This document shows, one piece after another, positions 4,277 through 38,997 of a stretch of DNA of 64,000 bases. Every line of letters starts with the position of its first letter. Position 1 is the stretch's first letter. A model generated the notes under the pieces. The model was not told the origin of the DNA, made no database searches, and worked only from the letters and a program-made list of their open reading frames with translations. The DNA comes from Chrysomallon squamiferum (Eukaryota > Animalia > Mollusca): contig CM022672.1 of assembly GCA_012295275.1 (NCBI GenBank), forward strand, positions 3,720,001 to 3,784,000, in the 5' to 3' direction. Made by a program: the position numbers and the translations under genes.

Positions 4277-4561
4277 GCTGGACACCTGGGAGTGTGACCA
4301 GGAGGAGTGGACGCCCACAGAGCGAGTTTTACATCATCACAGAAAAACACTGTTAAATCACAACAGCGATACTAACAGACCAGCATCCAGCAAACGACGG
4401 AAAAAAGTGCATAAAGACACTAGTGGTGGGTACACTGTCATTTAGTGTCTTATTGTTCACCTGCTCATAATGCATATACATATTTTTAATTTTTTTAATC
4501 TTTTTTTTATTATTATTATTATTTAATTTTTAATTAATTTATTTTATTTTTTTTTTTTTTT

Positions 4562-13443: not shown

Positions 13444-14462
13444 ATACCATATTTTGATTTCTTTTTTCTTCTTCCAGATGAACTCGTAAGCACAACACCG
13501 AATATATCAGTTGAAGATGAAACTGTACAACTTAAACTTTTGTGTGGTGCTGATCTCTTGGAATCATTTGCTGTCCCAGGACTCTGGTCTAATGAAGATG
13601 TGTGTTAAATACTCTTTTATTTTACAATTACCATGATATAAATATATGTTATTGATTTCTAAAACAGTTCATAAAGATGTATAAAACAATCACCATGTTC
13701 CATACTAGATCTACTGCAGATGTTATTTGCAGCTTATACATACACTAATAATTTTTCATTAACCTTGAATGTCAAATATTGCATAATTATACATTTTTCC
13801 AGGATCAATGGGTTGTCACGATAAATATTCATCAGAAAATCTTGAACATGAATGTCTGCAAATATCAGTGTTTTGGGATAATTTAAAGCAAATGTAAAAC
13901 AAATTTTACAAATTTAAAGGATTAATACCAATAGCTTCTCTGAAATTATTAAGTACAAAATTCATCAAACAGGATTGAGTCCTTAACCATTCACTCCTTA
14001 AGCTTCACTTGCAAAATTAAACTGTTTTAAACTGTATTTTCACTGATGTTATGTTTGACAGATTGAAGAAATTGTGGGTTCTTATGGTTTAGTGTGTATT
14101 TCCCGTTCTGGATCTAACCCGCAGAAATTTATATATGAATCGGATGTTTTGACAAAATTTCAGGTAAGTCACGCTGTATAATATATTTTTATAATTTTGC
14201 ATGTTTTTATTTATTATATATATATATTTTTAAGTATCTTATTGTTATTGTTGTTGTTGTTATATTATCTAAATCTAGTTCCAGTTTCAGCCAGTGCTCT
14301 TGTTTCTTGGATTTATCTTCAAAAATAAAATAAAAAATAAAAATACTGGTGAAAATGGTTGTGAGGTATTAAGCAAGCTCAGTCTTTTGAGTCTTTTCTC
14401 ACACACCATACGTGAAAAGCGGCCATGTTTTTACTGACTTCTTGCCAAGTAAGATTTTTGCT

Positions 14463-14513
<51 letters not shown>

Positions 14514-15148
14514 CATAATACACAACACAAAACACATACACACACAGGGCACATAAGAAATAACTGCAGGATAAAAAAACAAATAACTGGCTACAGTCTT
14601 AACATATCTGCTTTATCCAGCTCAGGTCGAAAGGTGATGCAGCTCAGCACAGACTCACTGCACATCAGCATTCTTGCCTTCACAGGATAAAACCGATATC
14701 TTTAGACAGTAACCAGTTATTGCCCTATTTGAATCAGTAATCATACAAACACAAATGACAAATTAATTTCTAATAAAACGTGTTTTCTGTTACATGCTCA
14801 GTTAGCAGACTGCAGAGGGATGCAGTAGATAAAAGCAAAATCATTTGACATATACAAATTATTAATTTTTGATGAGAGGACAAAATCCATTGATAAAGTA
14901 GTAATGCTATAAACAAGTGTAATGATACATTCTCCAAAACAAAACATGCTGAGCTTTTCATTTATTGGTTGCATAAAAAGTGTATGTGTTAACATTAATT
15001 TTTAGTTACTTTTTTAAATTACAAAATAAACTTAAGTATTTTTCTTTAATCTGTTTCATTTCACTACTGATCTGTATAATAAATAAAATGCCATGTATGT
15101 ATGTATGTATGTATGTATGTCTGTCTGTCTGTGTGTATGTGTGTGTGT

Positions 15149-15208
<60 letters not shown>

Positions 15209-18200
15209 CTGTGTGTATGTGTGTGTGTGTATATGTGTGTTGTGTGTTGTGTGTGTGTGTCATATAATTCTCTGAACATCTACAATAGATGGCTTTTTTA
15301 TTATTATTATTAAAGTATAGTATTTAAAAAAAAAAACAATAAAAAAAAAGCAATTAATTTTATTTGACTTTTTTTCATTGCAGTTTCTGATATTTGTAAG
15401 AAAAAAATCCATATTCTGAGAAAATAAACTGACAGCTTTACAAAATGACTTTCTGAGAAACAATGGACTGCATCTCAGTCTGGCATGAAAAAAACCTTTC
15501 TATTAATTAAATCCTCTTTAACAGGGTTCACATTTGATAGCTTTCTGCTGCGATCACAATGCACTGATATATTATTATCTATGTAAGACATTTCCTTTAG
15601 TTTTCTCTTCTTTTTTTCTTCTGAAATGTGCAACAGTTCATTTGCCAAGTATAGGCTTGATCTGATAAAACTATGTATAAATGCAGTGAGAAGAGAAAAA
15701 GTGAGTGTTGGCATATGACAGATCATCACTCATGCATTTAAAACCTGATTTGAAAAGAATTGGAGTTAGCTCTGTGATAGAAGTAGCAACTTTTTATATT
15801 TTTTTTAGACTTGGTTCATGTATAATGCTGAATTGTAGGCTTTGGGATTCATAGGAATAAAAAAAAATTAAAAGTCAATATTGAAACTAGATAGTTGAAG
15901 TCAGCTTTCATCACTTTCCAGTTACGAAAAATGGTAGACTCTTCAGTTACTGAAGGTACAAAATTTTCATGTGAAGAGAAAAGTCGTGTGAACTTACCAA
16001 GGAAGTTGTGTTCTGGTTGTGGTGCAGATTACTGGAAGAGTTCATAACACAGTGGCTTGTTTTAAAAGTGCAGAGGACATCATCATGTGACTGAATGTTC
16101 AGGCTGTGGCAGTTTTACTTTATAAATCTGAGACACTTTCATGTGTTTCAAATTAGCCGTTTTATGCTTTCACAAGCTGATTTGGTTATTAAATGCAGTT
16201 AATTTTGTTTTCATCATTTTTGGTCATAAAAGTTTGATATTAGAAAACATTGTATTATTTACAGTAAAAAGAAAGTACTATTTAGATGAACTAAAACTGT
16301 CTACAAGTGATTCTTGACATTGTATTTTAAACATATCATTAGAAGTTTCAAAAGAAGATTTCTGTTTTGTTTTAGGATTTTGAAAAAAAAAAAAAAACAA
16401 GCAAAAAAATCCCCCCAAAAAACAGTCTGTGATAAGGTTAAAAACAAGAATGGTAAACAACAGTTCAGTTTCAGGTTTCACAAACAGTATAGAATTTTGG
16501 GGTGTTTATGATTTTGTTTTCTACGCCATTTTCATTCTCACAGCCGCAGTCATTGTGTTTGGCAACGTCCTCATCATCATTGCAACAAGCCGCTTTAAAA
16601 TGCTCCACAGTGCCAACAACATCATGGTAGCATCATTGGCACTGAGTGACCTTCTGATCGGAGCAGTCTACTTGCCGATGAAGCTGGCTATCTCAGCAAA
16701 AGGCTCGTTTATTTTGAGTAAAAATCTCTGTCTGTTGAACATCACCATTTCATTCTTCTGCGTTGGACTGGCCATGACTTCTCTTTCCATGTTGTCCATT
16801 GAGCGTTTTTATGCTGTTCAGTTTCCTTTCCATTATCACACACACATGACTGTCACTCGGAGTCTGGTGTGGAGTGCAAATACTCTGTTTGCAATTCTTA
16901 TCATAGTAATGCCAATATTTTGTGGAATTGATTCATGGACAGAAGAGAAAGATTGTCTCAATTTCCAAATCTTGCCATTTTACTACATCTGCGCTGTTGG
17001 TTTTGTTATGTTCGCCATTCTCTTGTGTGGGTTTCTTTCTTTCATCCGAGTCCTTGTAGCAGAAATTCATGTCCGGAGACAAAACCGGACTCAAAACGTA
17101 ATGACTACTCGACATTACGATTCAGTGAAGTGCACTCTGATGCTCTTTGTTTATGTGTTTTCCATCACGTGTTGGATCCCTCAGATCATTTCTGTCATCG
17201 TCTTGGCTGTCCATCCTGAAGACAGCAACATTCTGGTAACAACGGTGGTTTCAGTTATAGCACTGTGCAGCTCTGGAGTTAACTGTTTCATTTACGGGCT
17301 GAAAAACAGCAAGTTTAGAGAAGCTTTCAGGAAAATGTTTGGTATGAAAGTTTCACCGACTACTGATGTTTCTTCAGATTCAGGTGCAAGTGCTGTGGCT
17401 CAGGTCATCAGAACATCGAACCTGACACTGACTGTGGTGGCATCCTCTTCTTGCTCTCTGCAAACGACCGAAAAAACTGAAAAAAACTGAAAAACGGAAA
17501 CGTAAAATGTCTGACAATACTTCAAGTTCTGGTAGCACTGGGGAGATGGTGTTTGATATGATTTGAACTGTTGCACTGCCAATTTTGAAATTACCATAGA
17601 TTTATTATCTCTTTTAAATACAAAGGAATAAAACTAACATATAAGAAAGACACAACACAAAAGAAATGTGAGAAAGAAAAAAAACTAAATCACTAGAAGA
17701 TCAGATGTTTTGAAAATTGAACAGGATCATTCTCCAAAATTGTAGTGATGTGTCTAATCAGTTTGTCTAAATAATATTTTTAATCAAATACCAAGGTGAT
17801 ACATTTTTCTACCAGTGGGACAAATGATTATAAAGCATCTCACACTGGCCCTAAGACTAATACAGAATTTCTTGATATGTATTTATGTTCTGTTTGTTCA
17901 TGTCTGAGATGCTAAGTCTGAAAGCAAATATTTATGAAACTGGTAAGTGTATTAAAACAGTGCATTAAATCAGGGGTTGTCGAATTTTTTTTTAATCTCT
18001 CTACCCCTTTGAAGATGCCATAAAAATACTGATATTAAATATTTTTTAAATCTGTTTTTATGAAGCATTTTTCAATAGAAATGATAAAGGTGTTGTATGA
18101 ACAGTATTTAAAAAAATGCACAGAGCACGTAAAAATGTAACTGAGCCAAATCTGATGTATTACCAGATTGAACTAAATATCATGCAAACCAAATGTAGAA

Positions 18201-19519
18201 AAATAATGAAAAGACTATTAAATAAATACTGTTCTTTTGTTTTGTTTTTTCACAATGTTCTAGAATCAGATTTCTGTTTTTATATTGAATTCATTGGATT
18301 AATTCATATTTTAATATTTATTGCATTAATTAATTTTGCTGTATTTTTTATTTATTTACTTAAGTACTTACTGAATTAGTTAATTTCAGCTGGTTATTCA
18401 ATGCATAGAACTGATTCTTTTTATTGTTATCATATGCATTAATATAAATACTTTTTACATCTGAATAATTATTTGATTATTTTTGTTTTGTTGTTTTGTT
18501 TTATTTTGTTTTTAGGTGTCAACTATAATATTTTCTAATGACAGTGTGATATAAATAATCTTCTGCTACAAAACATTGTTGTTAGAAGTTAAAAAGAATA
18601 CTGATCCACCAAAGAACAAACACTGGCTGAAACAGAAAACACCACAAAGCTTTTCCCCAGGGGAATAGTCCAAGTCATCCATCACTCACCCATTTTGTGT
18701 GCGTCTGCTTTGATGAAAAATATATTTTTGTTATAATTGTCTTACAAAAAGGAAAACAAAAGTAGACCAAAAGCAAACAGAAAGAAAAAAAATGAAGTAA
18801 ATAAAAATATAAATAAATAAATAAAAAAAATAAATAAAAAAAATAAAAATAAAAATACATAACATAAATAAATAAAAAAATTAAAATAAAAAATCTATAA
18901 TAAATATAATAACAAAAAAATAAAATAATAATAATAACAGTAAGTAAAAATTACTTATTAACAAATATTTCATCAAACATTTATACAGGCATCGTGCATG
19001 TTCATAAAAACTACATTACATGGAAGAATGAATTCCTTCTGCTTTGTCAAAGACTAGTTTTTCCTAATTAACAACTAAAAATCTTTTATATACATGATAT
19101 CAGAAAGAATAATACTTATTATCTTCTGTGGAACACTTGCTGGAATGGGAAATGCCATTTCTAAACTAACGAGAATTTTAATCATCTTTCAGAAACTGTT
19201 TTTCTTTATTGTCTTTCTTTGACAAGTGAGTATGTTTTGGTTTCTTTTCAGAATAACATTTTTGTCATCACAGAATGGATATATAATGATATCAGCTCAA
19301 CAAAAATTAGGTAAGTGTTTGATATTAAATATCTGTGTTGTGTTAATAGAAACTTAGAAAAGGTAGCATGAGGCTTGCAGAGTATTATGTTACATATTTG
19401 TTAAAATTTAATTTTAACTTGGTTTTATTTATTGTTTTAGTTTGTAAGAAATTTGAAGAAAAAAAATGTTTTTGTTAAAACAAAAATATATATCATGTAG
19501 AATAATGTTGTTGTTGTTG

Positions 19520-19569
<50 letters not shown>

Positions 19570-19676
19570 TCTGCAGGAGAGCTTTGAGAAGAAGAGAAAG
19601 TGTAAAGTATTTGGTTCAAGATTCTGTAATAGATTACATACGCAAACATCAACTGTATGGAGTCACAGACAAGTAA
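4277..19676 (+). CDS. NMNAT: Nicotinamide/nicotinate mononucleotide adenylyltransferase (NMNAT1/3-like), 5'-partial; exons 4277-4425, 13478-13599, 14062-14163, 19252-19310, 19577-19676 (short isoform)
   Basis: Hand-spliced GT-AG exons with consistent phases translate to (R)[23 protein letters not shown]...SKRRKK... / ...[25 protein letters not shown] / [34 protein letters not shown] / [20 protein letters not shown] / [50 protein letters not shown] and SVKYL...YI..H.LY are NMNAT hallmarks. The N-terminal GSFNP/HxxH exons were not found and presumably lie upstream of the window. Confidence 0.95.
4793..4989. repeat. (GA)n / GGGA purine microsatellite
   Basis: Direct reading. Confidence 0.95.
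5371..5640. repeat. Degenerate 21-bp minisatellite (consensus near TAGACTGAAATGTTCATACTG), about 12 units
   Basis: Visible periodicity, e.g. tacactgaaatgttcatactg-tagaatgaagtgttcatattg-tagaatgaagtgtttatacag. Confidence 0.8.
6570..6894. mobile_element. 325-bp non-autonomous Tc1/mariner-pogo (Tigger-like) MITE
   Basis: TA target-site duplication at 6568-6569 and 6895-6896; imperfect TIRs CAGGCTGATAATCTTTTATCCAAAAT and ATTTCAGATAATGGATTCTCAACCTG; internal GGATTTT subterminal repeats. Confidence 0.85.
7237..7330. repeat. 31-bp tandem repeat x3 (atcaatgaataaat.tatgtcttaatactta)
   Basis: Direct reading; a further diverged copy lies near 7420. Confidence 0.75.
9165..9565. repeat. Compound (GT)/(GTAT)/(TA)/(CA) microsatellite
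   Basis: Direct reading. Confidence 0.9.
12640..12845 (+). mobile_element. Decayed dispersed (SINE-like) repeat, copy A
   Basis: aggaaacctg...gattagtagcaagggaactgttatatccaccttcccataaacagg resembles the blocks at about 46915-47030 and 19020-19155. Confidence 0.5.
13357..13439. repeat. (CT)n microsatellite just upstream of the NMNAT exon 13478 acceptor
   Basis: Direct reading. Confidence 0.95.
16450..17490 (+). CDS. Intronless orphan rhodopsin-like (class A) GPCR nested in an NMNAT intron
   Basis: Seven hydrophobic segments, TM1 GN, TM2 LALSD, TM3 C...ERF, TM6 CWIP, TM7 NCFIY, helix 8 [10 protein letters not shown]-terminal sequon NNS. First ATG is at 16450 (the track ORF starts at GTG 16429). 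Ser at 3.32 (not aminergic) and Leu at 7.43 (not an opsin). Confidence 0.92.
   Translation: MVNNSSVSGFTNSIEFWGVYDFVFYAIFILTAAVIVFGNVLIIIATSRFKMLHSANNIMVASLALSDLLIGAVYLPMKLAISAKGSFILSKNLCLLNITISFFCVGLAMTSLSMLSIERFYAVQFPFHYHTHMTVTRSLVWSANTLFAILIIVMPIFCGIDSWTEEKDCLNFQILPFYYICAVGFVMFAILLCGFLSFIRVLVAEIHVRRQNRTQNVMTTRHYDSVKCTLMLFVYVFSITCWIPQIISVIVLAVHPEDSNILVTTVVSVIALCSSGVNCFIYGLKNSKFREAFRKMFGMKVSPTTDVSSDSGASAVAQVIRTSNLTLTVVASSSCSLQTTEKTEKN
19020..19155 (+). mobile_element. Decayed dispersed (SINE-like) repeat, copy B
   Basis: actagtttttcctaattaacaactaaaaatcttttatatacatg...tgtggaacacttgctggaatgggaaat; weakly similar to copies A and C. Confidence 0.35.
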
Positions 19677-19761
19677 GACAACTCTTATTATCTTGTTAGA
19701 GTTGTCTCTCTTCTTTTTTGCATTAGAATTGTCTCCCTGCATGATTAGAAGCTACATTTAC

Positions 19762-19803
<42 letters not shown>

Positions 19804-20691
19804 ATCAATTAATGTCTATTATTTATATATTGTGTGTATATTTTGTGATATTTTCAGTTCATACCATTATTAAAATTTTATATGTTTAATAATAGTAATT
19901 TACAAGGATTGTTTGTAATCATATTATTACCATTACAAGTGCCAGTTTTCTCAGGGTTTTTCATGTCCGTTTTGTGTTGTAAATTTTATTTCCTTGCTTT
20001 TTACTTTTTATCTGTTTTATTTTTTGTTTTCTTCAGACATCATCTTCAAACCAGTTTTAAGAGTTCTTGATCAATATCTTTGACAACTGACAAGAGTGAA
20101 GAAAAAAAATACAATCAGATAATAATAATAGTAGTAATAAAATAAATAAATAAACAAATAAAGTAAAATGAAGTGAAATGAAGTTAAATAATGAAATAAA
20201 ATTAAAAAAAAAAGAATCAAGAAATGAGAATTCAATTGCTGTAGTGAATCACTCCCTTAACTTTACATAGACTCTGGATTGTAAATAATGTAATGAGTTG
20301 TATATATGGAATATGGGTTATTACATTTTTTGTCATTGCATCTTCTCCCCTGTTGTATATTTCTTGTACATTGGTTTATGGATAGCCCCCCTTTTTTCCC
20401 ACATTAAAATATGTTTAATATTTTGTTGAGTATTGTACACAGTATGATATTTATCTTATTTTGTATTATTGTGATTATTATTGTTGTGTTTGTTATTTGA
20501 GTTTTATATGTTGTTTTGGTGTTATTAACTGGTTGGTGTTGATATTAATTTGTTACATTCTGTTGTGTTTTTAAATAGTTTTTATTCTATAATGTAACAG
20601 TTTTATTATTTTGAAATCCAATGAGAAAAAAAGAAAAGAAAGGAGGATGTAGAAAAAAATTATTAATAATAATAATAATAATAGTAATAAA

Positions 20692-20746
<55 letters not shown>

Positions 20747-20772
20747 TCATAATTATTAATATTGTATTCAGC

Positions 20773-20819
<47 letters not shown>

Positions 20820-21913
20820 CAACATTATAATCATCATTGTCATCGTTATCAACATTGTTATTGTTGTGGTTGTTGTTTTGTTGCTATGCTTTTAATTTTA
20901 TGCATTATTCATTGTTAAGAAAATTAACAACTAAAATGATCATAATGTGAAATTACATTAAATGCTTTACAGAGAAAAAAAAAAAAATATATTTTCATAC
21001 AATATACTTTATACTAATATTGTCAAATGTAAAATAGTACAGTAGTTACAACATGTCATGTAGCCCTTGTAAAAGTACATTATAACATATTAAAGTTCGA
21101 CAGATTAAAAGTAATCTAATAGAATTAAATGAAATATATTTTATACTTTTGTTTTGTTGTATTCTATTTCCTTTTTGTTATCTAAATGAACAAAAGACGT
21201 TGTTGACATCACAGATAATTAAAATATATTTTGATACCAATGAAAAAGAAAAATATCTGGTGTGTCATTTTGTTCTGAACACTGGATTTAACAGTAAGCT
21301 ATATAAAGCATTAGTTATATATGCAGTTTAATGAATCATTTTGTTTGAAAAAGCAGGATGCTGTTACCAAACACAATATGTTCTACTTTTACTCTGCTCT
21401 AAGAAAACTATACCAGATTATATTCTTTCGTTCTGTTTCTTTTGCAAGTTGTTACGAAAAACAAAACAAAAAAAAGTAAAAACATTAAGTGAAGTATTGC
21501 GTAGACTTCATATGTACCCTAATTATTATATCACTGAAGAAATAAACTGTATCCTTTCTGTGAGTTAAACTTTAGCAGCATGAGAAACTTTGTAAATATA
21601 CAACCAATCGTATGAACTAACATACAAAGAGTTTTTCATAAATGAATTGTAGGCCAAAGGCTGAAACGGTAAACAGCACAATGTCATAGCAACGATTAAT
21701 TTTGCTCTTTATCAGTTTGTCTGCGGTTTTGGCTGTTAGGATGAGGGCCAGTTATGAATAAGTCCTGCCAATAAAATAGATTAAACTATTACACAGACAC
21801 AGGACAAATAATAATAATAAAATAAAATACTATACATGTTTGTTTACAGTTTGAATCTTTCAAACGAGACGAGAAAGATCTCTTGACTCTGTTGATTATT
21901 CTGAAACAAAAAT

Positions 21914-21960
<47 letters not shown>

Positions 21961-23523
21961 CATTCCAACACATTTTTATAAGATCAAATAAATGTTTGCA
22001 GATCATTGAAAAACAATTAAATAAATAAACCTACGAAAACCCAGTAAACCTACTTTTTGTAACAGATTACTTACATTAACATCATTGCAATATTCATTAC
22101 TTAATGGAGATGAGACAAAAGCAAGCTTAAAGCATTCGTGTTTATGCGCGTGTAGAGTACACACACATTGTTTTATGTTATACGTTTAATTTAAGACCAT
22201 GCATTCAATAAAATCAATTCAAAGCATTATACAACACTCTCTTAATTCTCCTGTACAAAAAGTAATAATTGATTAATGAAAAAAAATACCATTTGAGTGA
22301 ATTAGGTTTTAATAGTGTAAAAAACAACAACAAAAAAAGAAACAAAAACAAAACAACAACAAACAAACAAACAAACAAGAAAAAACAACGACAATAATGT
22401 ATTTTGATAACACATTATATCTGAATTTAACCTGTTGGATACTGGATTACAAATTTTGTTAATGCTGTTGGAAAATGACAAATTTACCGATTCATTTGTT
22501 TACAGATTAAAAATAACAATACATAAACACTCTTTGGATAACATTTCCGCTGATCTTTAAAAAAAGACTGAAGGTCGTTAAAACGTATAGACAGAGTTAG
22601 TACTTACATCAGAATTTCTACCAATGCAGAATTTAAAAAAAAATAAAAATAAAAGAAAGAATTAGCTGAATTGGTCATGATGTTACACAGTAAGTGAAGC
22701 AACTGTACTTATAGAAAACAGAATGCAACTTAAGGTATAACTAATTCTACAGTATAATTATATTCTTTCGTTAATGTCATTAAAATTGTCAAACAAATCA
22801 TTAAACCTGCAAATGAACATTTTATTTACAAGCAGGCATTAATCGTGATTGGCGAAAAATAAAACGAAAATCTTCGACAGCGTTCATGGAAAATCATAAA
22901 ATATAAAAAGAGTTAAAAATAAATAAAACTCTTAATAAGGTAATATGCTGAATTACATGTTTTAAAATAAATGTCCACACAAAATTGTCTTTTCAAGAAA
23001 TAAAACACTGAACACATTATTATTTCGCTTGCTTTTATTCTGAGACTGCTCTCAGACAAAATCCCACTACTTGTCAAAAGCTTCCAGTAAAATATAAAAC
23101 TATAGTTAGAAACAAATACATAATACCATAATATACTCTTGATTTAAAACAAAGCTGAAATCAAGACTTCCCAAACGAAAGAGTAGATCAGTATTTTAGA
23201 TAAATGAAGATACATATTCCTCAGTCACCGATATTTTTCTTTCATTCTTATTGCTCTTAAGTTGTCTATCGTCCTACCACCAGTACCAACACTATTATTA
23301 CTATTACTATTATTACTACCACTACTAATACTACTAATACGACTATAGTAAACACTTCCATTTGATATCCATTATAACTTAAATACGGCGAATTGTTATG
23401 AGAAAAAAAACATTTGAATTACCTTACAGTATATAGAACGCATGCTCATTATGCATTTTTGGATTAATAATTTAGGTGTAATTCTATATAATTTGATATA
23501 TGTGAAATAGAAATAAAGTCTTG

Positions 23524-23554
<31 letters not shown>

Positions 23555-23744
23555 GATAATGATAATAATAATTAAAAAATTTCAAGTTACATTTGCATGC
23601 TTACTAAAAACAGATGACCAAAATAAAATAAAAGAACAACATGTATTTATATATTTATTTTTATCACGACGTAAGTACAGTTTAATAATGTTAAATGATT
23701 CAATTTAATTCTCATGTTTTTGTTTCTGCTTTCCTGGAATTCAG

Positions 23745-24081
23745 TAAGTACATCAACCACATCGTCCCGTCACCAAACACGGAAAACTACGAGGATTCGT
23801 CGGAAATGGAAAATCACGAAAATTCGACGAGAAGAACAACGTCATTAGTGTCACCAACCGGCTCCAACATCCTCCTCCTCTCTTCCAAAATGAGTCCAGA
23901 AGAAAAGTTGTCGACGACGTGGTCTGATGATAAACTGGTGTCGTCTCCAGCGAGGATGCTCAACAGCAACACAAGTCCTTGCTTGACTCCGCGAAAATCT
24001 CAGTGTTTGTCCGAGATCGGGATGTTAGTTCGGAGAGTGAGGAACGTTCGGCTTTCCTTCACGCCAGAGACGTGTGTATGA
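23745..24081 (+). CDS. NMNAT: Candidate alternative terminal exon of NMNAT (Ser/Thr/Pro-rich tail of about 112 aa ending ETCV)
   Basis: Polypyrimidine tract and CAG acceptor at 23742-23744. Phase 2 matches the donor AA|GTAAGA at 19672/19673, giving ...GVTDN-KYINHIVPSP...FTPETCV*. The exon is an open, GC-richer island in otherwise AT-rich sequence. Confidence 0.7.
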
Positions 24082-24145
24082 CGTCACCAGAAAGAGTTTC
24101 ACTAATTCCGTCTTCTGCTTTCTTTCAGGATAGGTTCAGGATAGG

Positions 24146-24256
<111 letters not shown>

Positions 24257-25085
24257 TATCCTGTCTCCTGCGAACAAAATTTTAGTTATTGTTATTATGT
24301 ATTATGGTCATTTAATCTTTATTTATTTATTTATTTTGCATTGGTGATTAATTAACTCTCTGCTGTTTGATAATATAAATGAAAACTGAGAATTGCTGCT
24401 CTGATTTGATGTAATACCAAATGCAATATAAATTATGCATTGCAAATTCACTGAAGTCACAACTGCTGTTGCAGTCGACTTTATTTTCCATATTATTTTT
24501 ATTTAATTAATATGCTTCAGTATTAATATTTAAAAAAATATATATTAATTATAAATATAACAATGTCAGCATATTTTTATAACTAACGTTCCTTTAGGTC
24601 GAAGAAGAAACAAGTAAGAAAAAAACCTTATTAAAAATAATGGTGGTTTGTGATTACTATAGTTAGAAAAAGCTCATATATGATAATCGTTTGGTAGTGT
24701 ATTGCAGGTGAATATCATTATGTTATAAATGTCCATCAAGTTATATTTTAACATCTTCGAAAAAATACTATCTAAGCACATTAAAACATGTATTTTGACA
24801 ATCTTGCCACCCGCCTCTTTTAATATAACCGAAGAAAAATATGCTACTGTCATTTGCAACAACAGCAACGATAAATAAATAAATAAACAAACAAATGTAC
24901 TGTTACATTTGGTAGGTAATTAAGAAAAAACAACCGCAGAACAAACATGCACGCACACACACACACACACACACACACAGACAAAACCAGAAAAAAAAAG
25001 AAACAAAAAATTCTTCTACCTAAAGAGACGTAACTAACTGTGTATGAACATCACAAATTCTATTTGTCACTTTCCTTTCAGTTTC

Positions 25086-25247
25086 TAAAACGTCGTTAAT
25101 GACATTAGAATTATATCCTGTACAGGTTATTGATCTACTTCATTCATTCTGTTTTGAACCGATAAATAAAACGTCGTTAATGACATTAGAATTATATCCT
25201 GTACAGGTTATTGATCTACTTCATTCATTCTGTTTTGAACCGATAAA
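25086..25247. repeat. Exact 81-bp tandem duplication
   Basis: taaaacgtcgttaatgacattagaattatatcctgtacagg...gaaccgataaa occurs twice, at 25086 and 25167. Confidence 0.95.
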
Positions 25248-25327
25248 TATATCAGTACACTGCGTCTTTCAGAATACATTTATATGTATTTGTATATATT
25301 TAATGGTTTCATTTTTGGATTGTGTGT

Positions 25328-25740
25328 GTGTTTGTTTATTTGTTTGTTTATTATAACTCTAGGTATGTATTTTCATTACTGATATTACCAAATGTTAGAC
25401 TGCTTTGTTTGTTTGTTTATTTGTTTGTTGATTATAACTGTAGGTACGTATTTTCATTACGGATGTTATCAACTGTTAGACTGCATTGTTTGTTTGTTTA
25501 TTTGTTTGTTTATTATAGCTGTAGGTGTGTGTTTTCATTATTGATATTACCAGCTGTTAGACTGCATTGTTTGTTTGTTTATTTGTTTGTTTATTATAGC
25601 TGTAGGTATGTATTTTCATCATTGATATTACCAGCTGTTAGACTGCATTGTTTGTTTGTTTATTTGTTTGTTTATTACAGCTGTAGGTGTGTGTTTTCAT
25701 CATTGATATTACCAGCTGTTAGACTGCATTGTTTGTTTGT
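25328..25740. repeat. 81-bp minisatellite, about 5 units
   Basis: Unit tgtttgtttgtttatttgtttgtttattatagctgtaggtgtgtgttttcattattgatattaccagctgttagactgcat; it produces the 27-aa periodic spurious ORF 25322-25777. Confidence 0.95.
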
Positions 25741-27075
25741 AACTGCTGTCGACAAGGCATACTTCTTCCGTGGCTGAATCAACTGTTGAGTATTTGCTGA
25801 TAAAATTACAAAGAGACACCAAAGAAAAATATAGCAACGTAAATTATTTATATAGACGTTTATTTGCATACAAACGAGTGTATAAGATTAGAACATCATT
25901 AAGATTGTGCGAGTCCTGTACAGTCTGTAGATTGATTAGTCACGTTAAAGTGTATTTATTTTTTAAACTTGTTTTACAGACACACACACACACACACATA
26001 TATACACACGTTGTCTTTTTACTGAATTTGAAAATAATTTATTATTTTTAGTAAAGAAAAATTGGTTTTGAAAATTGACTAATCACGTGTATGGTAAGTT
26101 GTTATGAAAAATGTATAAAATAAAATACATTTACTAATAAATCAAATTAATGACTGAAAATTAATTAACAGATGCTATGATTAGTAGAGAAATTGGGTGA
26201 CTATAAATAGAACACGCAGATTAGTGAGAGGAGAACCTATTTTGATAGAATAATATCTACGTTATAGTACTGTCTGTTTTATTTGTTTTTTTCTGTTTTT
26301 TTTTTGATAGGTTTAAAAACTGTTATCGAAATTATTATTGTTGTTGTTGTTGCTGTTGTTACTGTTGTTGGAGTCGTAATCATTGTTGCTGATACCGTTG
26401 TCGTCGTGGCTGCTGCTATTTTTATTAGACTGGTCCTGTTACTAGTTCTGTACATCACAGAAACTTGTTTTATATTTATCACCTAAAACTGTTTCATATC
26501 TTGGTTTTCTTTACAAAATACACGTAATTTAAAATATTTACTTTGTACCAAAATATCACCATGTTACAGATGTTTTTATTTATTTATATACACATTGTAA
26601 GTATATTTATGAGTGTATTTATTTGTTACCAGGTAACTGATTTTGGACTAAAAACTGGAAACCTTGCCATCTTGTTTCTTAATATCCTGTATCTTTATTC
26701 AGTTGGCATACTTTTCCTCTTAATTCGATTTTATATGTGTCTGTATATATATATATATACATATATTTCACAGATTCATAAAATACAATTGCTTCTTAGA
26801 TTTTTATACCAGTTTTATATAAATGTCTCTAACAACTTCGTAGGTATGCTCCTTGCTTAATGTTTTGTATGTTATATGCGTTTATGTATTGATTATTGTG
26901 TATCTACCTCATTTGCTAAGAATAAACTGCTTGTGTATATGGGTGTAGATAAGCTTAGAATTAAGCAGAAATTAATAAAATTTTGACTTTGACATGAATG
27001 GTGCTTATTCAAAGCTTTATACCAAACGTCGAACTGTTGACACCATTTGACGATTCTTATGAACGTATTGGTTTT

Positions 27076-27127
<52 letters not shown>

Positions 27128-27686
27128 ATGTATGACCATCAGGTACAAATCCTCATATGTGTATATATATTTACCTTGTACAATAAACAGATCACAATAC
27201 AATGTTCGTCTTATTATTTACTGATCCATTGCAAAATGTAATAATGTAATATTAATTCATAAGTATAGCTCAGTTTCTTCTGTATTCTACCACTTCTTCT
27301 TTCTTTCTTTTTTCTGCTACTTGTTGTTGCTGTGATATAACATTTTACAATTATTAAGCCTGCATTAGGCAACCCGTAATTACTTTGTCTGAAAACTGCG
27401 TGCTGTGCAGTGGAACGTCCATTTACAGATATCTACAGGATAGTCTAGTTTATTAATATCTGTATAAGTAAACCAAAAACAACATCAAATCCATTACACC
27501 GTGCTGGTGTATTATCTAAGAGTTTTATCTATTAACAAAAAGTAATTTTAAATTAGTTATTTTAAATTAGTTATTTAAGTTGTGGAGTAATCGATGAACT
27601 GCCGATGGTTTATTGCTAGTCTAGTACATCCACGGTTACCTCCCTTGGTTCGAAGGATTTTTTGTAAAAGTTGTGTTAATGTTACA

Positions 27687-27769
<83 letters not shown>

Positions 27770-28330
27770 GACAGACAGACACACAAAGAGCACAAAAAGA
27801 TGTTCTTTTTTCTCACACATATAAAATTATCAACGTAGATTGACGTCTATTACATGCACTCGTCATTTAACGACCAAGTTTCGGAACTAAGACCGGGTTC
27901 TTAAGCGAACTGGTCGATAAGCGAGAATCCGCCTCTTACCGATATTTCTAGTATGCTGTACTGACAGTGGGTTTTATCAACCATCTTTAGATATTTGTTT
28001 TAATGTTACCTTTTCAACAATTAAAAAAATATATATATATGTATGCTCTAATATGCATTACTTAGGTCTGGATGCTGTAAGTAATGGTAATCGTAAAAAT
28101 GTATTCTAAATAAAGTATAGGTTTAAAGGACACTCCAACTTGACAACGTTCGATTTAATCTCATTAACTTACTTATTACAGTACATAATAATACTATCAG
28201 CAAAAATTCGAATTTCTTGTAATATGAGGTGGATCACGCGGTAGAAATTCATAGACGAAACGTGTAGTCTTGGATATTTCAAACGTTAATGTTAGTGAAT
28301 ACATATAATTATTTGTAAACAATTATATAA

Positions 28331-28373
<43 letters not shown>

Positions 28374-28377
28374 AATA

Positions 28378-28424
<47 letters not shown>

Positions 28425-29095
28425 TGATGAAGAGGAGGAAATGTAATGTGCATACTTTATTACAAAAAAAAAAAGAAACTAACCATAAGAAACAGTATGC
28501 ATGTATATATATATATATATATATATTTTATATAAATTACAAATAAGGACTTAATGTTGTAAATAAATAAATAAATAATGATTACGATGTGACTAAGATG
28601 ATGATAACAGAACAAAAATTATTAACAAACATTGGCTGTTTCAAAGCAATATATATTTATATAAACTCATTTATATATATATTAATAACCACTATACAAA
28701 ATATTTATAATATATCTTATCTATTAATGTTTTCAATTCACACTTCAAAAGTATGAACTCTAGAAGAGTACTGTGTAAATAACAAAACACTTAAAAAACA
28801 TGTTCTGCGGTCAAGCTGTGAAATATTTAGTAAATGTTTTCATCAACGTCATTCCTGCACTCTGGTTTTGTTTTTTCATCCGTCTAAAATAACGAGTTTT
28901 TGTCGAACGAGAGAGTTCATTGATCTGTACGTGTGATACAAGTCTCCAGTTAAGGTTTTCTTGTAAGGTGATTGTGTTTCTGCAATTATTTCAGATAAGA
29001 AGTTAAAAAGACAAGAAGAAGAAGAAGAAGAATAAATGACTGGATGGATGGATGGTTAGACAAACAGACAGATAGATGTAGACATCTAGCTGTTG

Positions 29096-29425
29096 CTGCT
29101 ACCAACACTACTACTACTACTATTACTACTACTACTATTACTACTACCAGAACTACTACTACTACTATTACTACTAATACTACTAATACTACTAATACTA
29201 TTACTACTACCAACACTACTACTACTACTATTACTACTACCAACACTACTACTACTACTATTACTACTACTACTGCTAGTACTATTACTACTACTATTAC
29301 TGCTATTACTACTACTACTACTAGTACTATTACTACTACTACTACCACCACTACTACTACCACTACTATTGCTACTGCTACTACTCGTAACAACAACAAC
29401 AACAACAACAACAACAGTAACAGTA
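29096..29425. repeat. (ACT)n/(AAC)n trinucleotide array
   Basis: Direct reading; explains the poly-T, poly-L and poly-V ORFs. Confidence 0.95.
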
Positions 29426-29750
29426 ATGGTACTGCGACATGTTATTCTCTGAAAATACGTCCGGTTCGTTAATCAAAGTTAGAAAGTAACGGAAACGCCT
29501 GTCTCTTGTAGTACAATGGCCGCCTCCTTGTGAGTACCGGAAACGAAGTAAATGGACAGAACTCACTGGAATTTTAGTCAAGCTGGAATTCTTTAATGTC
29601 TGGAGTTCTGTCAGTATTCTGTTATTTTTTGTTTTTGTAAACGTCCGTACTTACAGTTTCTTTTCAGTAATCTTAAAATCTGTTCTTATCTTCTCACGGT
29701 TGAAACCATGCTGTTAATTATGAAGCCGTCAATTCAGTTTTAGCTAACAG

Positions 29751-29793
<43 letters not shown>

Positions 29794-30819
29794 AATCAGA
29801 GAAAATAGTGAAGGAATAAACTTACTGAAATAAAAGATAATTTCTATTAAATGAAATTGCTTATATAAAGTAACATCAATAAATAATAAAATAATGGGAA
29901 AAAGGATTGCCTTTCTCTCCTAAGAAAAATACCCCATCTTTCACGACATAAATATATTTATCATTTATTACTCATTGAATACGTATTTCTTGTACATGTA
30001 ATATACCTGCAAACATAGGCCTACATACCTAGATACACACACGATATTCATACATATTTCACCTGTGTTCATATATAATTATGTACATAAATGGTTCTAC
30101 CTGGGTCACTATATACACTCACCATTTTGTAGATAATTATTCTTTTTCATAAATCTTGTCAGGCTTCGTTTTTGAAATGAATAATATTTTAATAAAAAAA
30201 ACTTTGCACTTTTGTTAAGTTTATATAGAACTATTTTAATATTAACAGTGACAGATAATAAACAACATCTATTTTCTTAAGTAATTCGTAAATGAAAATT
30301 AATTAATTTAATGAGACGCTTAACATCGTCTGTATAGAGAGTTATCGATCCTGAGAAAAGCACAAGTTTTAGTTAAATCAAATCTCAAGATGTCTCTGTT
30401 GTTTGGAAAGGTATGTCAGTAAGTAATTGTTGTCATGACAAAAAATAAATTAAAAATTAGGTCATGATGACTGGTGAACTAATCGAGTAATCGGAACAGT
30501 GAACATCAAACCAAAATCTGAATTTTAATTTTGTATTTAATAAAAATACACTGAAACCATCTGTAACGAATCAACACCCAAAATGCTGAAATAACTTTCC
30601 ATAATGTAAATCTGATGTGAGATATAAAACTGGAATAAAAGTGTTGATTCTTTACTGTATGTATATGTATGTATATGTATGTATATGTATGTATGTATGT
30701 ATTTATATATTATTAGAAACAGCACTGAAATATAATTTAATAAAACATACATTAATACACTTCAATATCAAATAACGCAATGCAGTATATTACAAAAAAA
30801 ACAACAACAACACCAACAA

Positions 30820-31120
30820 AAAGTGCCGTACAATACGATACAGTAAATTACAACCATATACAGCACAGTGCAGTACAAACATTATTTCACAAAACATAAC
30901 AAAATACAACACTCCAGTGTTATACAGTAAAATACTACATTAAACATTACAACTAATCATAATACTGTATAGTACAAAACAATAATACAATACAATACGA
31001 TACGATACGTAATGGTGCAATAAAATACGATACGTTACGATACGATACGTTACCTTACGATACGATACGATACGATACGTAATTATGCAATACCATGCGG
31101 CACTCTACGATACGATAACA
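30820..31120. repeat. Degenerate pentanucleotide array (TACAA/TACGA)n
   Basis: Direct reading. Confidence 0.85.
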
Positions 31121-31989
31121 ATGCATATACAAACACCACTTAAAGAAATACCGTCAGACATAAATATTTATTATGCCATAAATACTTTACCTTCTGACAG
31201 TACAAACACACTTATAGACAGTTAACATAATCATTATTTTTACTACAGGGCCTTTCCTAAATCCTACTACCTATATTTTCGTCCATATTTCTAATCAAAA
31301 CAGTCTTAAAATCAATTACACCAGCATACAAGAAAGGATACGACAACACAGAGTCTAACAGAAGAATGGATAACATCAAAGAATTCTAGCTTTACTAAAA
31401 TTTCATGGAGTTTTGGTTGCACTTTCTTTATTTCCGGCATGCGCAATCAAAGGGCAAGTACGATTCGAAGGACAGAAATTACTTGATATCTGAGCTTGAT
31501 GTATTTCGATGCAAATTAAATAGTAAGAGGAGAAGATATATTAGTGTTGTTGCTGTTCTGATTGATATTGTTCTTGTTCTTCTTCATCTAAAGTTTATCA
31601 TCATCGCCATCATTATCATCATTATCGCCATCATTATCATCATCATCGCCTTTATTATTATTATTGTTATTATTATATTAAACAAGGAAAAATGAAGTCG
31701 AAATTTTGATTTTTCAAATATTTTAAAAATATTTATTTATTTATTTATTTATTGTCAAATCAGATGATGTACCAACATGACACTTATATATATTTTTTTA
31801 TCTGTATTTATTATTATTATTATTTTTTTTTTTTTCAGAAATAAACTAACAATGACAGCACTCCTCCTACACGTCGATCATGCCTTGTACAGGAATTTTA
31901 ATAGTAAAAATAACAAACTTGTGTATTGTTATACACACTGTATACTGAATGTTAGGCGGTTAATTAAGCGTGCATTTTGGGTCATCTGT

Positions 31990-32083
31990 AGCCTATCAGG
32001 TTTATGTATCGATTTAAGATAGATATTATATACAAAGGTCGCAATGATAGTTCTTCCTCGTTAACTTAGCATCAAAAAACAAG
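31990..32083 (+). other. Putative non-coding 5' UTR exon of GPCR copy 1 (5' boundary approximate)
   Basis: Block beginning gcctatcaggttt and ending AAG|GTAAGT is conserved upstream of all three copies; it would splice to the acceptor at 33706/33707. Confidence 0.65.
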
Positions 32084-33707
32084 GTAAGTTACAGAATTGA
32101 TTTGTTTTGTTGGTGTAATTCTGCTAGCAAGACCTTTTGTTAGGTAATGCAATTTATCACAGTAGATGGGTGGGTATTACTATTTTCCTCCATTGTTTGA
32201 ATATTATTATTTGAAGAAATATTTTTAGTTGATATAAAAATTATTAATTATATTATACATTGTTTCCATTTGTAATAAAATAATTTATCTCAAACTAGAT
32301 AATACGAGGTGTATTTTTGAATATGTTTTTGAATCGATGTCCACTTAGAGCGATTGTTACTTATGTAATGAGAATAAATCAGTGACGGATTCGTTACGAA
32401 ACAAAATGAATTTAAGTTTCGGGACCCCTGCTCTTAGAGGGACCCCAGAAGCGATTTTAGTCTTCACTGCTCTAAAGTTTACAAAATGAAATGAGTCTTT
32501 AAATTTACAAAATCTGTCATGGACGTTTTGCCATACGAGAAGAAGATAATAAGCGATACAAATACATTCTTATTGTTTTGGTTATGAAAATACTACAGAA
32601 ACAGAATTTTAAATACCCCTTCAAGTTAGTTTTAAATAAATATATTACTATTGTTTGGGGTAATAAAATAAAATAAATCGTTTGTATATTGTTGCTAAAC
32701 TAATGTCTAAACATGCTGTTTGTCTCTTTTTGTTCATCAATATCTAGTGTATGAATTTTTGTTATTTAAGAAAAGAAGGCTTTTTTAAAAATAATTTGTT
32801 CTTCTTCGTACTGAAAATCTGAGCTGGTGTTAATCGAAAATAATCATAATTCAATGTCTTAATAGAAATTAGTCAGTTTCTGATCTCAATGAAATTAGTG
32901 AAAAACACAAAGCGTCATTAATGTCAGTTCTTAAGGAAAATGTATTGGTATTTTTATTTTGTATAAGATAGAATGACCTCCACCGTTAACGCTGGAAGAA
33001 CTGTTATATGTAATTGAATAGATCATTAATTTTGTCGATAATGTATCTGAATAATATGGGGCTAAGTTTTAGTTTTATCTGTGCAAATAAAATAACATAA
33101 CATAAAATAAAATATAATAAACGAAAATGAATGAATGAATGAATGAATAAATAAATAAATAAATAAATAAATAAGAAAGAAAGAAAGAAAGAAAGAAATG
33201 AAACAATAGAAATCAGAAAGAATGAAGAACAAAACAAATAAAAAAGAAAAACGAGTTTAAGAAATTAATATCGGACAAAGCAGAATGGTTGAGAGAAATA
33301 TTTAATAAAATAAAGAGAGAAAGGAGAAAGAACGAAAGAATTAATGAAAGAAAAGAACAAAATTTGACAAAAATATTAATGATGAAAGATAATTAAAATA
33401 TAAGATAAAGAATGAAAGAAAAAAATCGAATGAAAAATAAAAGAAAGAATGAATAAAATAAAGATGAGAGAAAGAATCAAAGACAGAATTAAAATAAATG
33501 AATTGAAAGAAAGAAGATGAAGAAGAAAAGGAAAGATATAGTTTATTAATAGAATGTAAGTCTTAATGACAGTGAAATAATTCTGATGCCTTAACTAACA
33601 CAAATGACTATATATTTATGTAAGTAAATTACTAATTAAATAAATAAACATGTTTATGGAGTAATTTACAGATAATAAACTGTATTTATTTTATTTTATC
33701 TTTCAGA

Positions 33708-35237
33708 ATGTGTTTCCATAGTACGATATTGTTTATGTGTTTGATCGTACTGCTTTCATATTGTCAGAGTAATAATGTTATGGAAGAAAGTATCATAGAA
33801 AGAAAGATGACATCCAGTCCTAGCGCCAATAACATCGACAACTTTCAAAGAAAAACATCTACAGAGATGATACGAAAGACTACAAATGCGAAGAAAACAT
33901 CTGAATCAGTAACGACCGAAGCGATAGCAATTTCATCTTTAACATCTGGAGACTCAGCTTTATCTTCAACTACTGAAACCGTATCTGCTACCTCTTCATC
34001 GTCTGAAACTCTAGCTTTGACATCCGAAGCGAAGACAACTGTAGGAAAAATATCTGCCGCGATAACCGCTCTAACAACAAGAACTGAAGCTACGACGTCA
34101 TCGCTGAATGGAAACAACTCTGAAAATGTCTCCGAGTCCTCGAATAGTGCCGTTAAACGTTTCAAACTGGACCCACATGATTACCTTGACAAGATCGTCA
34201 CGCCTGTAACCCTAGTGGTAGGGTTGTTTGGCAATGCCGCAACTTTGTTTGCGTTACAAGGACATCCATTTAACAAAATACCATCTCAGTACGTACTGGC
34301 AGGTCTCGCTCTGACGGATTCTTTGGCCTTGGTGACGAACAGTCTGGGCAAAAAGATTGTAATCAATATGATGGGTTTCGACCTGCGTGCCTACTCAGAC
34401 ACCAGCTGTAAAATATTTATTTTTGCTGCACATTTTGCCAAAATACTTTCCTCGTGGTTTGTTGTGCTCGTTTGCTTCGAACGTTTTGTAGCTATCTGTC
34501 TGCCTCTGCACGCAAAGCGAATCTGCACGAAATCTAACGCTGTAAAAGGAATTGTTGCTACGTTGGTTATGGCAATAACGTACAGCGGAATCTGGACTCT
34601 GTCAACAGCAAAAGTAGGATCAAAATGTAATTCCAGTTACTGGACACCTGAAACGATGGTTCGTGGGAAGGCCATCATATTGATAGGATCTCTGCTGATC
34701 GGTGTCCTGCCTATGGCCATCATGGTCACACTGACGCCAGTAATGTGTGTGGTTTTACGACGAAATCGTCTCTCAAGAAAAGCGATTTCATCTAACCGCG
34801 GTAAGGAAGTGTCAAAAGTCTCAGCCATGTTAATCTCCATCTGTATATCGTACATCGTCCTTTTGCTGCCTCTTATAATATCTTACAATATGGCTTTCGT
34901 TAGAGGAGAGAATCTCTTCACAACGCAGTATCTTCCCTTGATGATTCTTGCCATCGTCGGAGTAAATTTCTCAGCCATCAACTACTCGTGTAATTTCTTT
35001 CTCTATCTCATATGTAACGCGGCATTCAGACGCAGGATGTTGGACGCTTCCCTTTTCAGAAAAAGAAAACAAGAATCTTCAAACTGCGTAATTCTGAGGC
35101 GTTTCCTACCCTTTCAACTATTTCTGGATAATATTTTTCTTCTTCTTTTTTGGGGGTTGTCCTTCTTGTTACTTATAATCTGTTACAAACTTAGTCAGAG
35201 AAGAAATTGTTCAGTAGTCACAAAATTTTATAGATAG
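33708..35237 (+). CDS. Class A GPCR, peptide-receptor-like (FMRFamide receptor/GPR139-142-type motif set), with signal peptide and mucin-like stalk; copy 1, C-terminus frameshifted relative to paralogues
   Basis: 509-aa ORF with hydrophobic N-terminal signal, Ser/Thr-rich stalk, GN, LALTD, ERF, LLLP and NYSCNFFLY motifs. Splice acceptor tttcag|A directly precedes the ATG. Confidence 0.9.
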   Translation: MCFHSTILFMCLIVLLSYCQSNNVMEESIIERKMTSSPSANNIDNFQRKTSTEMIRKTTNAKKTSESVTTEAIAISSLTSGDSALSSTTETVSATSSSSETLALTSEAKTTVGKISAAITALTTRTEATTSSLNGNNSENVSESSNSAVKRFKLDPHDYLDKIVTPVTLVVGLFGNAATLFALQGHPFNKIPSQYVLAGLALTDSLALVTNSLGKKIVINMMGFDLRAYSDTSCKIFIFAAHFAKILSSWFVVLVCFERFVAICLPLHAKRICTKSNAVKGIVATLVMAITYSGIWTLSTAKVGSKCNSSYWTPETMVRGKAIILIGSLLIGVLPMAIMVTLTPVMCVVLRRNRLSRKAISSNRGKEVSKVSAMLISICISYIVLLLPLIISYNMAFVRGENLFTTQYLPLMILAIVGVNFSAINYSCNFFLYLICNAAFRRRMLDASLFRKRKQESSNCVILRRFLPFQLFLDNIFLLLFWGLSFLLLIICYKLSQRRNCSVVTKFYR

Positions 35238-37523: not shown

Positions 37524-38997
37524 GTAAGTTTCAGATTAAGTATATTATTTTATATACACAGAAATTCCACTCTCAAGACATTTGTTACAGGTAATATAAT
37601 TTACCATGATAGACGGTATTTATGTTACTGAACTTATCTTTTATCCCACGTTGTTTGAATAGTATTATTTGAGGGAATTTTTTTTATTTAGCATTAAAAA
37701 TATATATTATAATTATGATGTTCCCATTTGCAATATAAAAATTAATCTCTAAATTTTAATTTACTTATAGCGATTTTCTTTTCCAATATAATAAATTTAA
37801 TAACTAATATTTGTTTCGATTAAAAAGCCAAAATATACTGAATTTGTGTCTGCGTCAAATAAAAGTTTATTATTAATCCATGTATTTGATATAGGTAAAA
37901 TATAACAAGATGTTTTTGGTTGTGAAACTATTAAATATATAAAAAGTTTACATGTATATACTGTATATACTGTAGCAAGAATAATGTCTAAAAGAGTCAC
38001 TGATACTGCATCAGCGAGCATGCATACCTCTAGCAGCATTTGTTTGTTTAATTGCAGAACGTTTTCGTAATAATTCATACATTTGATATCTTCTTATATA
38101 AACTGAAGGTTCAAACTGACACGCTATTTGATTGATTATATTCACGGATATTGCAAGACAGAAGAAAGTTATTTATAAAAACAGAAGAGTGGTGTCCACA
38201 GTCTGTGAGACGTGTCCAGTGACCTTCACTCACAGCTTGGGACACCATGGTAACGGGACCCTTAAAGTTAGGTGTTATCTCGGAATCCACACTCAGTTAC
38301 TGGAGGTCTTTCCCATCCGCCTTACTGAACTAGGGGACAGGGGAGAGAGAGAGTTGCTGGCAAAACAAAACAAGAACAAAAATCTCAACAAATCTTCCAG
38401 CTAATCCAGTGGAAATCTGAGAGTTTTCAACAAAAAGACAAAACTTGAACAAAATCTACACCAAACATACAGAAGTGTCCAGCTTATCAAGACAGGCTGT
38501 TTGGCTAATCGAGACTAGGTTTACATTTTTTTCCGCCAACTCTTTTCCGAGGGTAGTCGACACACTCCGCCATGAGTGTGTTCATATTCAGTGATTTTTA
38601 CTGTAGCTCCGCGTTCAACGGACGAGTGCATTTCGGAACCGTCAAATTTGTTTTCTTCTTATTTTATTATTTTTGTTTTTACGACTGCCATTTCACACTT
38701 TGCACGTTATCGTGACCTGCGTTTTCTGCAGTCCGTTCACGGAAAATATGAAAGAAATAGTTTATTTTAGAATATTAATGTACGTGTGTTGTGTATTTAC
38801 AATGTTTCCTCCATACAAACTACAGCTTTCAAAGAATCCTTGCCCTTTACCTATCTTCCAACAGATTTTCTTTCGAATAAATAATTTTAAAAAATTAAAA
38901 ATTAAAAAATAATTAAATAAGTAATACACTAATTGGATAAATAATCAAAGTTAACAAGTAATTACAGCGTATACATTGTATTTATAATATTTTCAGA

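Follow-up and report, generated by a model that had tools for sequence, protein, structure and literature searches.

An alternative C-terminal tail of NMNAT in Chrysomallon squamiferum, conserved across Lophotrochozoa and carrying a predicted switchable PDZ ligand

A gene for NMNAT lies in a 64,000-nt, AT-rich stretch of Chrysomallon squamiferum DNA (hereafter the window, in which all coordinates given below are positions). A distal exon of this gene at 23745-24081 (+ strand) encodes a real and deeply conserved alternative C-terminal tail that, to judge from its sequence and that of its relatives, carries a predicted PDZ ligand that is switchable at two levels and apparently new to the literature. 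We regard it as fairly probable that the single donor at position 19672 joins the constant part of the gene either to a short proximal exon or, likely, to this distal exon, whose tail, ending ETCV, is a predicted ligand of class I PDZ scaffolds and would thereby keep the enzyme out of the nucleus. The site of NAD+ production decides axon survival and nuclear signaling, and in this gene splicing likely decides the cellular place of NAD synthesis.

The NMNAT gene and its alternative endings

Five exons on the plus strand (4277-4425, 13478-13599, 14062-14163, 19252-19310, and 19577-19672) form one stop-free frame. In tblastn they are collinear with NMNAT proteins, and they encode the LLCG-D-LESF and ISSTxxR motifs of the eukaryotic NMNAT (PF01467) catalytic core, the latter as ISSTKIR in exon 19252-19310. 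The first four are assigned from the frame and from protein matches, and the splice from 19252-19310 to 19577 is also present in RNA contigs (below). The exons are spread over 20 kb, and the N-terminal ~100 residues, the part in which the family has its (H/T)xxH nucleotide-binding motif, are encoded upstream of the window. Among 192 fetched proteins, the NMNAT of Gigantopelta aegis is the closest (78% identity over 175 amino acids; the next reach at most 65%), and it is the sister of the window NMNAT in a tree of selected cores (44 rows; support 100/99). A KRRKK that resembles a nuclear localization signal (NLS) is encoded at 4392-4406, in the first, constant exon of the window, and occurs at the same place in many relatives.

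The last constant exon, 19577-19672, ends GAC AA/GTAAGA (the slash marks the splice break) and provides a shared phase-2 donor; read-through would use positions 19673-19676 and end the protein Asp-Lys-stop, with the TAA at 19674-19676. The initial annotation of this stretch had drawn attention to this overlap of donor and stop codon, which is present in the sequence. The overlap is not independent evidence, however, because a phase-2 donor AA/GTAA reads Lys-stop by construction, and the idea of a special design was rejected in favor of a by-product of the donor consensus.

A search with window positions 23600-24130 led to four sequencing runs of C. squamiferum (runs X1 to X4), three of which are RNA runs from a single study, the fourth being of a kind not recorded; all four are contig sets that are shallow (depths 3-13), come from unrecorded tissue, and have rare variants dropped. 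On 19572-19764, contigs of runs X1 and X4 enter from exon 19252-19310, cover 19577-19672, and leave at 19672, and runs X2 and X3 have no contig. The 30 letters that follow 19672 in both X1 and X4 are identical (30 of 30) to window positions 20037-20066, a 30-mer unique in the window, so the donor at 19672 is real and in use, and it is joined to a proximal exon; the junction 19672-20037 is thus observed directly. This proximal exon (20037-20070) has a strong acceptor and encodes a 10-codon tail, HHLQTSFKSS, followed by TGA; AATAAA signals lie behind it at 20136, 20145, 20157, and 20195. Read-through into 19673 and beyond was seen in the contigs of none of the four runs, and missing cover past 19672 and in runs X2-X4 was not counted as absence. 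It had been proposed that only two options follow exon 19577-19672 and that the short form ends at the overlapping TAA. The first needs correction and the second finds no support in this species, as the RNA contigs show splicing to a third exon, at 20037, in which the short form that they represent ends.

The acceptor of the distal exon (ttcag/T at 23745) opens, in the matching phase 2, one nucleotide plus 111 codons and a TGA (24079-24081), as initially annotated. Among the 175 AG sites of the interval, it gives the longest phase-2 frame (112 residues, the next being 73) and ranks 7th by pyrimidine content. Further, each of the five remaining frames of 23746-24078 is broken by 3-5 stops, and GC content is 48% in the exon versus 25% and 30% in its flanks. 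Coding constraint on the exon is also evident from run X3, which spans 23555-24086 in one piece with seven differing letters, five of them within the tail frame; four of these five fall on third positions and are synonymous (23% expected; P = 0.012). As a separate observation, the X3 contig matches the window until 24086, 5 nt after the tail stop, and then continues with 30 unlike letters, either a difference in the 3' untranslated region (UTR) or an insertion beside an AT/AG microsatellite. The acceptor itself, CAG/TAAGTA (23744-23749), contains a perfect GTAAGT donor motif because of the conserved AG/T-Lys-Tyr start, and no use of that motif was seen. Downstream of the exon, an ~80-nt direct duplication (25085-25250) and a tandem array of ~80-nt units (25330-25750) were noted by eye.

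The encoded tail consists of an NKY..PSP start, an S/T-P-rich linker, a Cys conserved at 25 residues before the C-terminus, a basic LVRRVRNVR block, and a terminal TPETCV. It holds seven S/T-P sites (mean of 2.2 in 20,000 shuffles; P = 0.0005), the sequences TPRK and RRVRNVRLSF, and ETCV directly before the TGA, all of which, along with the internal KRRKK, had been correctly read from the DNA at the outset. Class I PDZ ligands, with the consensus E-S/T-x-V, have S/T at -2 and V/I/L at a free C-terminus, and the tail has Thr and Val at these places. We infer binding, localization, and phosphorylation throughout from the definitions of the class I PDZ, CDK, and RVxF motifs. An AlphaFold model built on a 36-row alignment led by a Babylonia protein gives pLDDT values mostly >85 in the core and 41-55 in the tail, and the linker is predicted to be disordered. 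The distal tail has no match in the ESM Atlas and belongs to no Pfam family.

Conservation of the distal tail and its further endings

A search with the tail alone retrieved three of 121 candidates, all of them pulmonate NMNAT with 100% tail coverage; a tail profile found nine proteins among 7,991 scored; and an unindexed search returned six unnamed open reading frames (ORFs) with the tail, five ending ETCV and one running past it. The attribution of the exon to NMNAT and not to another gene is borne out by these results, as the tail alone retrieves only NMNAT and in relatives the exon continues the NMNAT frame after an identical D-N-K-Y junction. Carriers with an ETCV or ETRV end include heterobranch, caenogastropod, and patellogastropod snails, the bivalves Mytilus and Sinanodonta, the chiton Liolophura, and the octopods Octopus and Argonauta, and, outside the molluscs, the annelids Ridgeia and Owenia and the nemerteans Lineus and Tubulanus. 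Conservation of the NKY start and of the terminal T-x-V therefore extends far more widely (molluscs, annelids, and nemerteans) than had been guessed, and these alignments of protein models and ORFs place this exon in the NMNAT frame in relatives across Lophotrochozoa.

The plan of the tail is constant among these relatives: NKY..PSP, an S/T-P-rich linker, a Cys usually at -25, a basic LVRRVxNV block, and PETCV. Linker length varies several-fold between relatives while the ETCV/ETRV end stays. A hidden Markov model (HMM) of 28 lophotrochozoan tails, from which the window was excluded, scores the window tail at 81.6 bits, and the best of 155 shuffles reaches 6.1. In Sinanodonta (P0052) and in the P0016 cluster the end is extended and again finishes ETCV after an internal ETRV; this re-formed ETCV points to selection on the terminal position. 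The 24 tails listed in the HMM comparison carry 2-10 S/T-P sites each, and proline-directed sites are, on this sequence comparison, a general property of the tail and not a conserved position. The proposal that TPRK is a conserved CDK site was rejected, as it lies in a stretch that is missing from four aligned pulmonate tails.

A profile of the whole protein gave 1,476 matches, of which 120 are listed and 114 of these parsed; Lineus, one of the six listed but unparsed proteins, ends ETCV. Among the 114 parsed matches, 25 of the 58 tails longer than 35 residues end [ST]-x-[VIL], 23 of 58 end E-[ST]-x-[VIL], and 18 of 58 end ET[CR]V, against one of 56 short tails (internal backgrounds are 3.0% for [ST]-x-[VIL] and 0.12% for E-[ST]-x-[VIL]); these counts are descriptive, as tail-bearing proteins served as seeds of the search and related sequences are not independent of each other. 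In a Logan cluster that groups with octopods, nine of 10 members are proteins of 350 amino acids that comprise NMNAT and the tail; their contigs measure 1.6-3.0 kb, and one sequence occurs on 77 contigs. Since the NMNAT exons of the window span 20 kb, such contigs are probably spliced mRNA, and the long form is probably expressed in at least one relative. A scan of JGI metagenomes with the tail alignment gave 246 pattern matches, none of them confirmed.

The isoform sets of relatives diverge at the same Asp-[Asn/Lys] point. Asp-Lys read-through ends occur in 14 of the 120 matches listed (eight of them from Logan contigs) and in two contigs, 2.8-2.9 kb long, of a Mytilus cluster; such ends could reflect genuine short isoforms or retention of the last intron. 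Short exons that start N-T are found in Haliotis, Pomacea, Littorina, Biomphalaria, Aplysia, scallops, oysters, and Ruditapes. The window proximal exon, HHLQTSFKSS, is unlike these N-T-[TIA] exons, and eight N-T starts among the 175 AG sites of the window interval included no convincing exon of that kind. It may be added that the shortest Haliotis isoforms (P0026 and P0028) end KTTV and KQTV, the former of which also fits the class I PDZ pattern.

A second level of choice is seen within the distal exon of relatives. The basic block is present in 28 matches: 16 of these end ET[CR]V, and in the other 12 a Y-[NS]-[LFV] type of ending takes over, either directly at V[RK]N or two residues beyond it. 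Both endings are present in Physella (RefSeq isoforms X1 and X2), and in Biomphalaria and Pomacea they occur in different records. Because proteins depart from the basic block at V[RK]N for these endings, we infer that many molluscs have a second donor within the distal exon, at a Val codon, that replaces the ETCV end; in such molluscs the predicted PDZ ligand would be switchable at two levels. Nemertean tails lack the N-V-R of this donor yet keep PETCV, and the donor therefore does not explain the ETCV motif. The corresponding place in the window is AAC/GTTCGG (24043-24051, break after 24045), a weak donor match. A YNLR exon was found in the window neither with a strict pattern nor by tblastn. 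A weak candidate for a further YNxR exon, TAG/Y-N-G-R at 29512-29577 (+ strand), is the single match within 24046-33647 to a pattern loosened post hoc (0.04 expected).

Proposed mechanism and rival explanations

According to the proposed mechanism, the single NMNAT donor at 19672 would choose between the short proximal ending (20037) and the conserved distal exon (23745). KRRKK, being constitutive, is retained in all forms; the short ones would likely be nuclear, and the long form would likely be tethered at membranes, junctions, or synapses via the predicted PDZ ligand ETCV, possibly helped by the conserved Cys and the basic block. Proline-directed phosphorylation of the linker would tune this tethering. 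In the many molluscs with the putative second donor, the last ~11 residues would be lost, switching off the PDZ ligand while keeping the linker. The conserved terminal ETCV and the putative splice site that would remove it together predict a scaffold-tethered NMNAT.

Several observations weigh against this proposal. The junction 19672-23745, which the initial annotation had suggested looking for, was found in none of the four shallow contig sets (contigs over 23555-24145), nor does any run's contig have a joint or a loose end at 23745. Contigs of runs X1 and X4 go past 19672 without a branch, and run X1 holds one 251-nt RNA contig (23641-23891, depth 3.7) that is unspliced across the 23745 acceptor; run X2 covers 23854-24020 and run X4 has nothing on 23555-24145. 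Several of the ETCV-ending NMNAT models are GenBank predictions, and the tail-end counts are subject to the seeding and kinship described above. Additionally, the penultimate Cys is nearly invariant in the tails, which exceeds the needs of a plain class I ligand, and another use of the end is possible. It should be noted that the missing 19672-23745 junction weighs little because depths are 3-13, contigs drop rare forms, tissue is unrecorded, and no silent control stretch was compared. That one gene makes short and long C-termini is supported by the isoforms that RefSeq lists for Biomphalaria, Physella, Haliotis, Pomacea, Aplysia, scallops, Mytilus, and Littorina; in the RNA contigs of this species the distal junction finds no support.

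The main rival, which we consider rather unlikely, is that the distal exon is a real NMNAT tail whose conserved last 25 residues serve mainly as a lipidation or membrane anchor made up of two Cys and the basic block, a PP1-docking RVxF site, or a degron. Most ETCV tails have Cys at both -25 and -2, and vertebrate NMNAT2 is anchored through palmitoylated Cys164/165 (PMC12470169). However, the ETRV of Plakobranchus and the ETAV of chelicerates keep the class I pattern with no Cys, and E-T-x-V stays at the free end even in the extended tails (P0052 and P0016). A test of the basic block as an amphipathic helix in 14 tails gave P values of 0.05-0.20 in 13 and <0.001 in one. As to PP1, [RK]-x(0,1)-[VIL]-x-[FWY] occurs within the last 20 residues in 10 of the 12 ET[CR]V tails listed in the HMM comparison, but Sinanodonta, Ridgeia, nemerteans, and octopods are without RVxF.

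It is improbable, further, that in C. squamiferum splicing to the distal exon is rare or has been lost, with the exon transcribed as part of a long 3' UTR, or of an intron left unspliced, that follows the proximal exon. Such a state would agree with the proximal junction being the only one seen in RNA contigs and with the RNA contig over the distal exon, which includes 104 nt 5' of the acceptor at a depth of 3.7, against 4.1 for the proximal-junction contig; against it, the 111 codons remain open, both conserved ends and the acceptor are intact, and the X3 differences are mostly synonymous as given above. That the exon is translated alone from the in-frame ATG at 23695 (a 128-residue peptide) or is part of another gene is highly improbable: the ORF 23695-24081 does start with Met and the unspliced RNA contig begins at 23641, but relatives have the exon fused to NMNAT, all four unnamed ORFs that reach 5' of KYI have Ser before it, as a YAG/T acceptor gives, and the residues 5' of KYI are unrelated among those four ORFs, which are probably genomic.

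Neighboring genes and comparison with known systems

The window holds several other genes. An intronless rhodopsin-family G-protein-coupled receptor (GPCR) gene (16450-17490, + strand; PF00001, E = 3.6e-23) is nested on the same strand in the NMNAT intron 14164-19251, and an intronless GPCR at 49671-50573 (- strand; PF00001) looks related to it. The plus strand also carries, in tandem, three intronless GPCR ORFs whose N-termini are long and rich in Ser/Thr; that at 33648-35237 is confirmed by PF00001, and those at 38962-40419 and 44264-45706 are near-identical duplicates. Exon fragments at 58578-58859 and 62628-62918 (- strand) have weak matches to DNA_pol_A and to the DNA polymerase nu pseudo-exonuclease, below curated cut-offs, and likely belong to a POLN gene.

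Tail-bearing NMNAT sequences are already in databases as automatic RefSeq and GenBank models: predicted isoforms of Physella (X1/X2), Biomphalaria (X1/X2), Haliotis (X1-X3), Mytilus (X1), Lineus (X1-X6), and Octopus share the junction, the distal exon, and the ETCV end. No paper on the NMNAT distal tail or its PDZ motif was found in a literature search largely without subscription papers and without supplements, and the PDZ mentions in PMC6468476 concern PTEN. The tail resembles class I PDZ ligands in its Thr at -2, Val at the free end, and Glu at -3 on a stretch predicted to be disordered, and differs from a plain ligand of this class in the unusually constant Cys at -1.

Vertebrates have three NMNAT genes, with NMNAT2 anchored by palmitoylated cysteines (PMC12470169). 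The window gene would resemble vertebrate NMNAT1/2/3 in making NAD+ by compartment through targeting signals placed on one catalytic core, with an internal basic NLS-like motif that recalls the NLS of NMNAT1; the vertebrate enzymes differ in being encoded by separate genes and in having internal or N-terminal signals. Vertebrate NMNAT1 proteins among the matches listed have short tails without the class I motif. In deuterostomes, crinoid NMNAT isoforms (P0130, P0149, and P0116) carry a short Cys-rich, GCCLC-like tail behind a similar junction, a possible lipidation anchor. Long NMNAT tails of arthropods start with a similar NKY..TPSP, and some, in chelicerates and insects, end ETAV, ETIV, or ESIV. 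Against the tail HMM, arthropod tails other than that of the fly reached at best 7.0 bits, versus up to 6.1 for shuffles, and their homology is not shown by this comparison. A wider proposal, which we hold to be doubtful but worth stating, is that a two-tier splice switch of a PDZ or membrane anchor in protostome NMNAT predates the split of molluscs, annelids, and arthropods; the ETCV form would then correspond in invertebrates to vertebrate NMNAT2 and provide axons and synapses with NAD+, the ends ETAV, ETIV, and ESIV would be the same device, and the NLS tail of the fly would be derived.

Outside vertebrates, the literature found describes the mechanism that sets the place of NAD+ synthesis for the fly only. 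In Drosophila Nmnat, exons 1-4 are constant and are followed by a proximal exon 5 (RB, encoding the cytoplasmic PD) and distal exons 6-7 (RA, encoding the nuclear PC with KKQK), and the choice of ending is controlled by a stem-loop and microRNAs (PMC4674693; PMC13092977). Other marks of the fly type of switch are complementary boxes on both sides of the proximal exon, which form the stem-loop, and a shift between isoforms that depends on stress. An inverted pair that brackets the proximal exon of the window (19758-19805 and 21912-21959) was examined as such a stem-loop and taken as chance, because such repeats occur everywhere in the window; the 25 longest of 511 inverted pairs around this exon are ATT/AAT or A/T-rich simple repeats, and a short unique pair could hide among the rest. 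The window gene resembles Drosophila RA/RB in its layout, in that a single gene with constant 5' exons would set its C-terminus by a proximal short versus a distal longer ending. It is not classed as the same switch because the feature of an NLS in the distal tail is absent: in Drosophila, KKQK lies in the distal tail, so that the long form is nuclear and the short form cytoplasmic, whereas in the window gene the NLS-like KRRKK is constitutive and the distal tail, with its basic block but no KKQK, ends in the predicted PDZ ligand. The localization logic of the isoforms is thus predicted to be reversed relative to the fly, which suggests that the nuclear long form of the fly is not the general invertebrate state.

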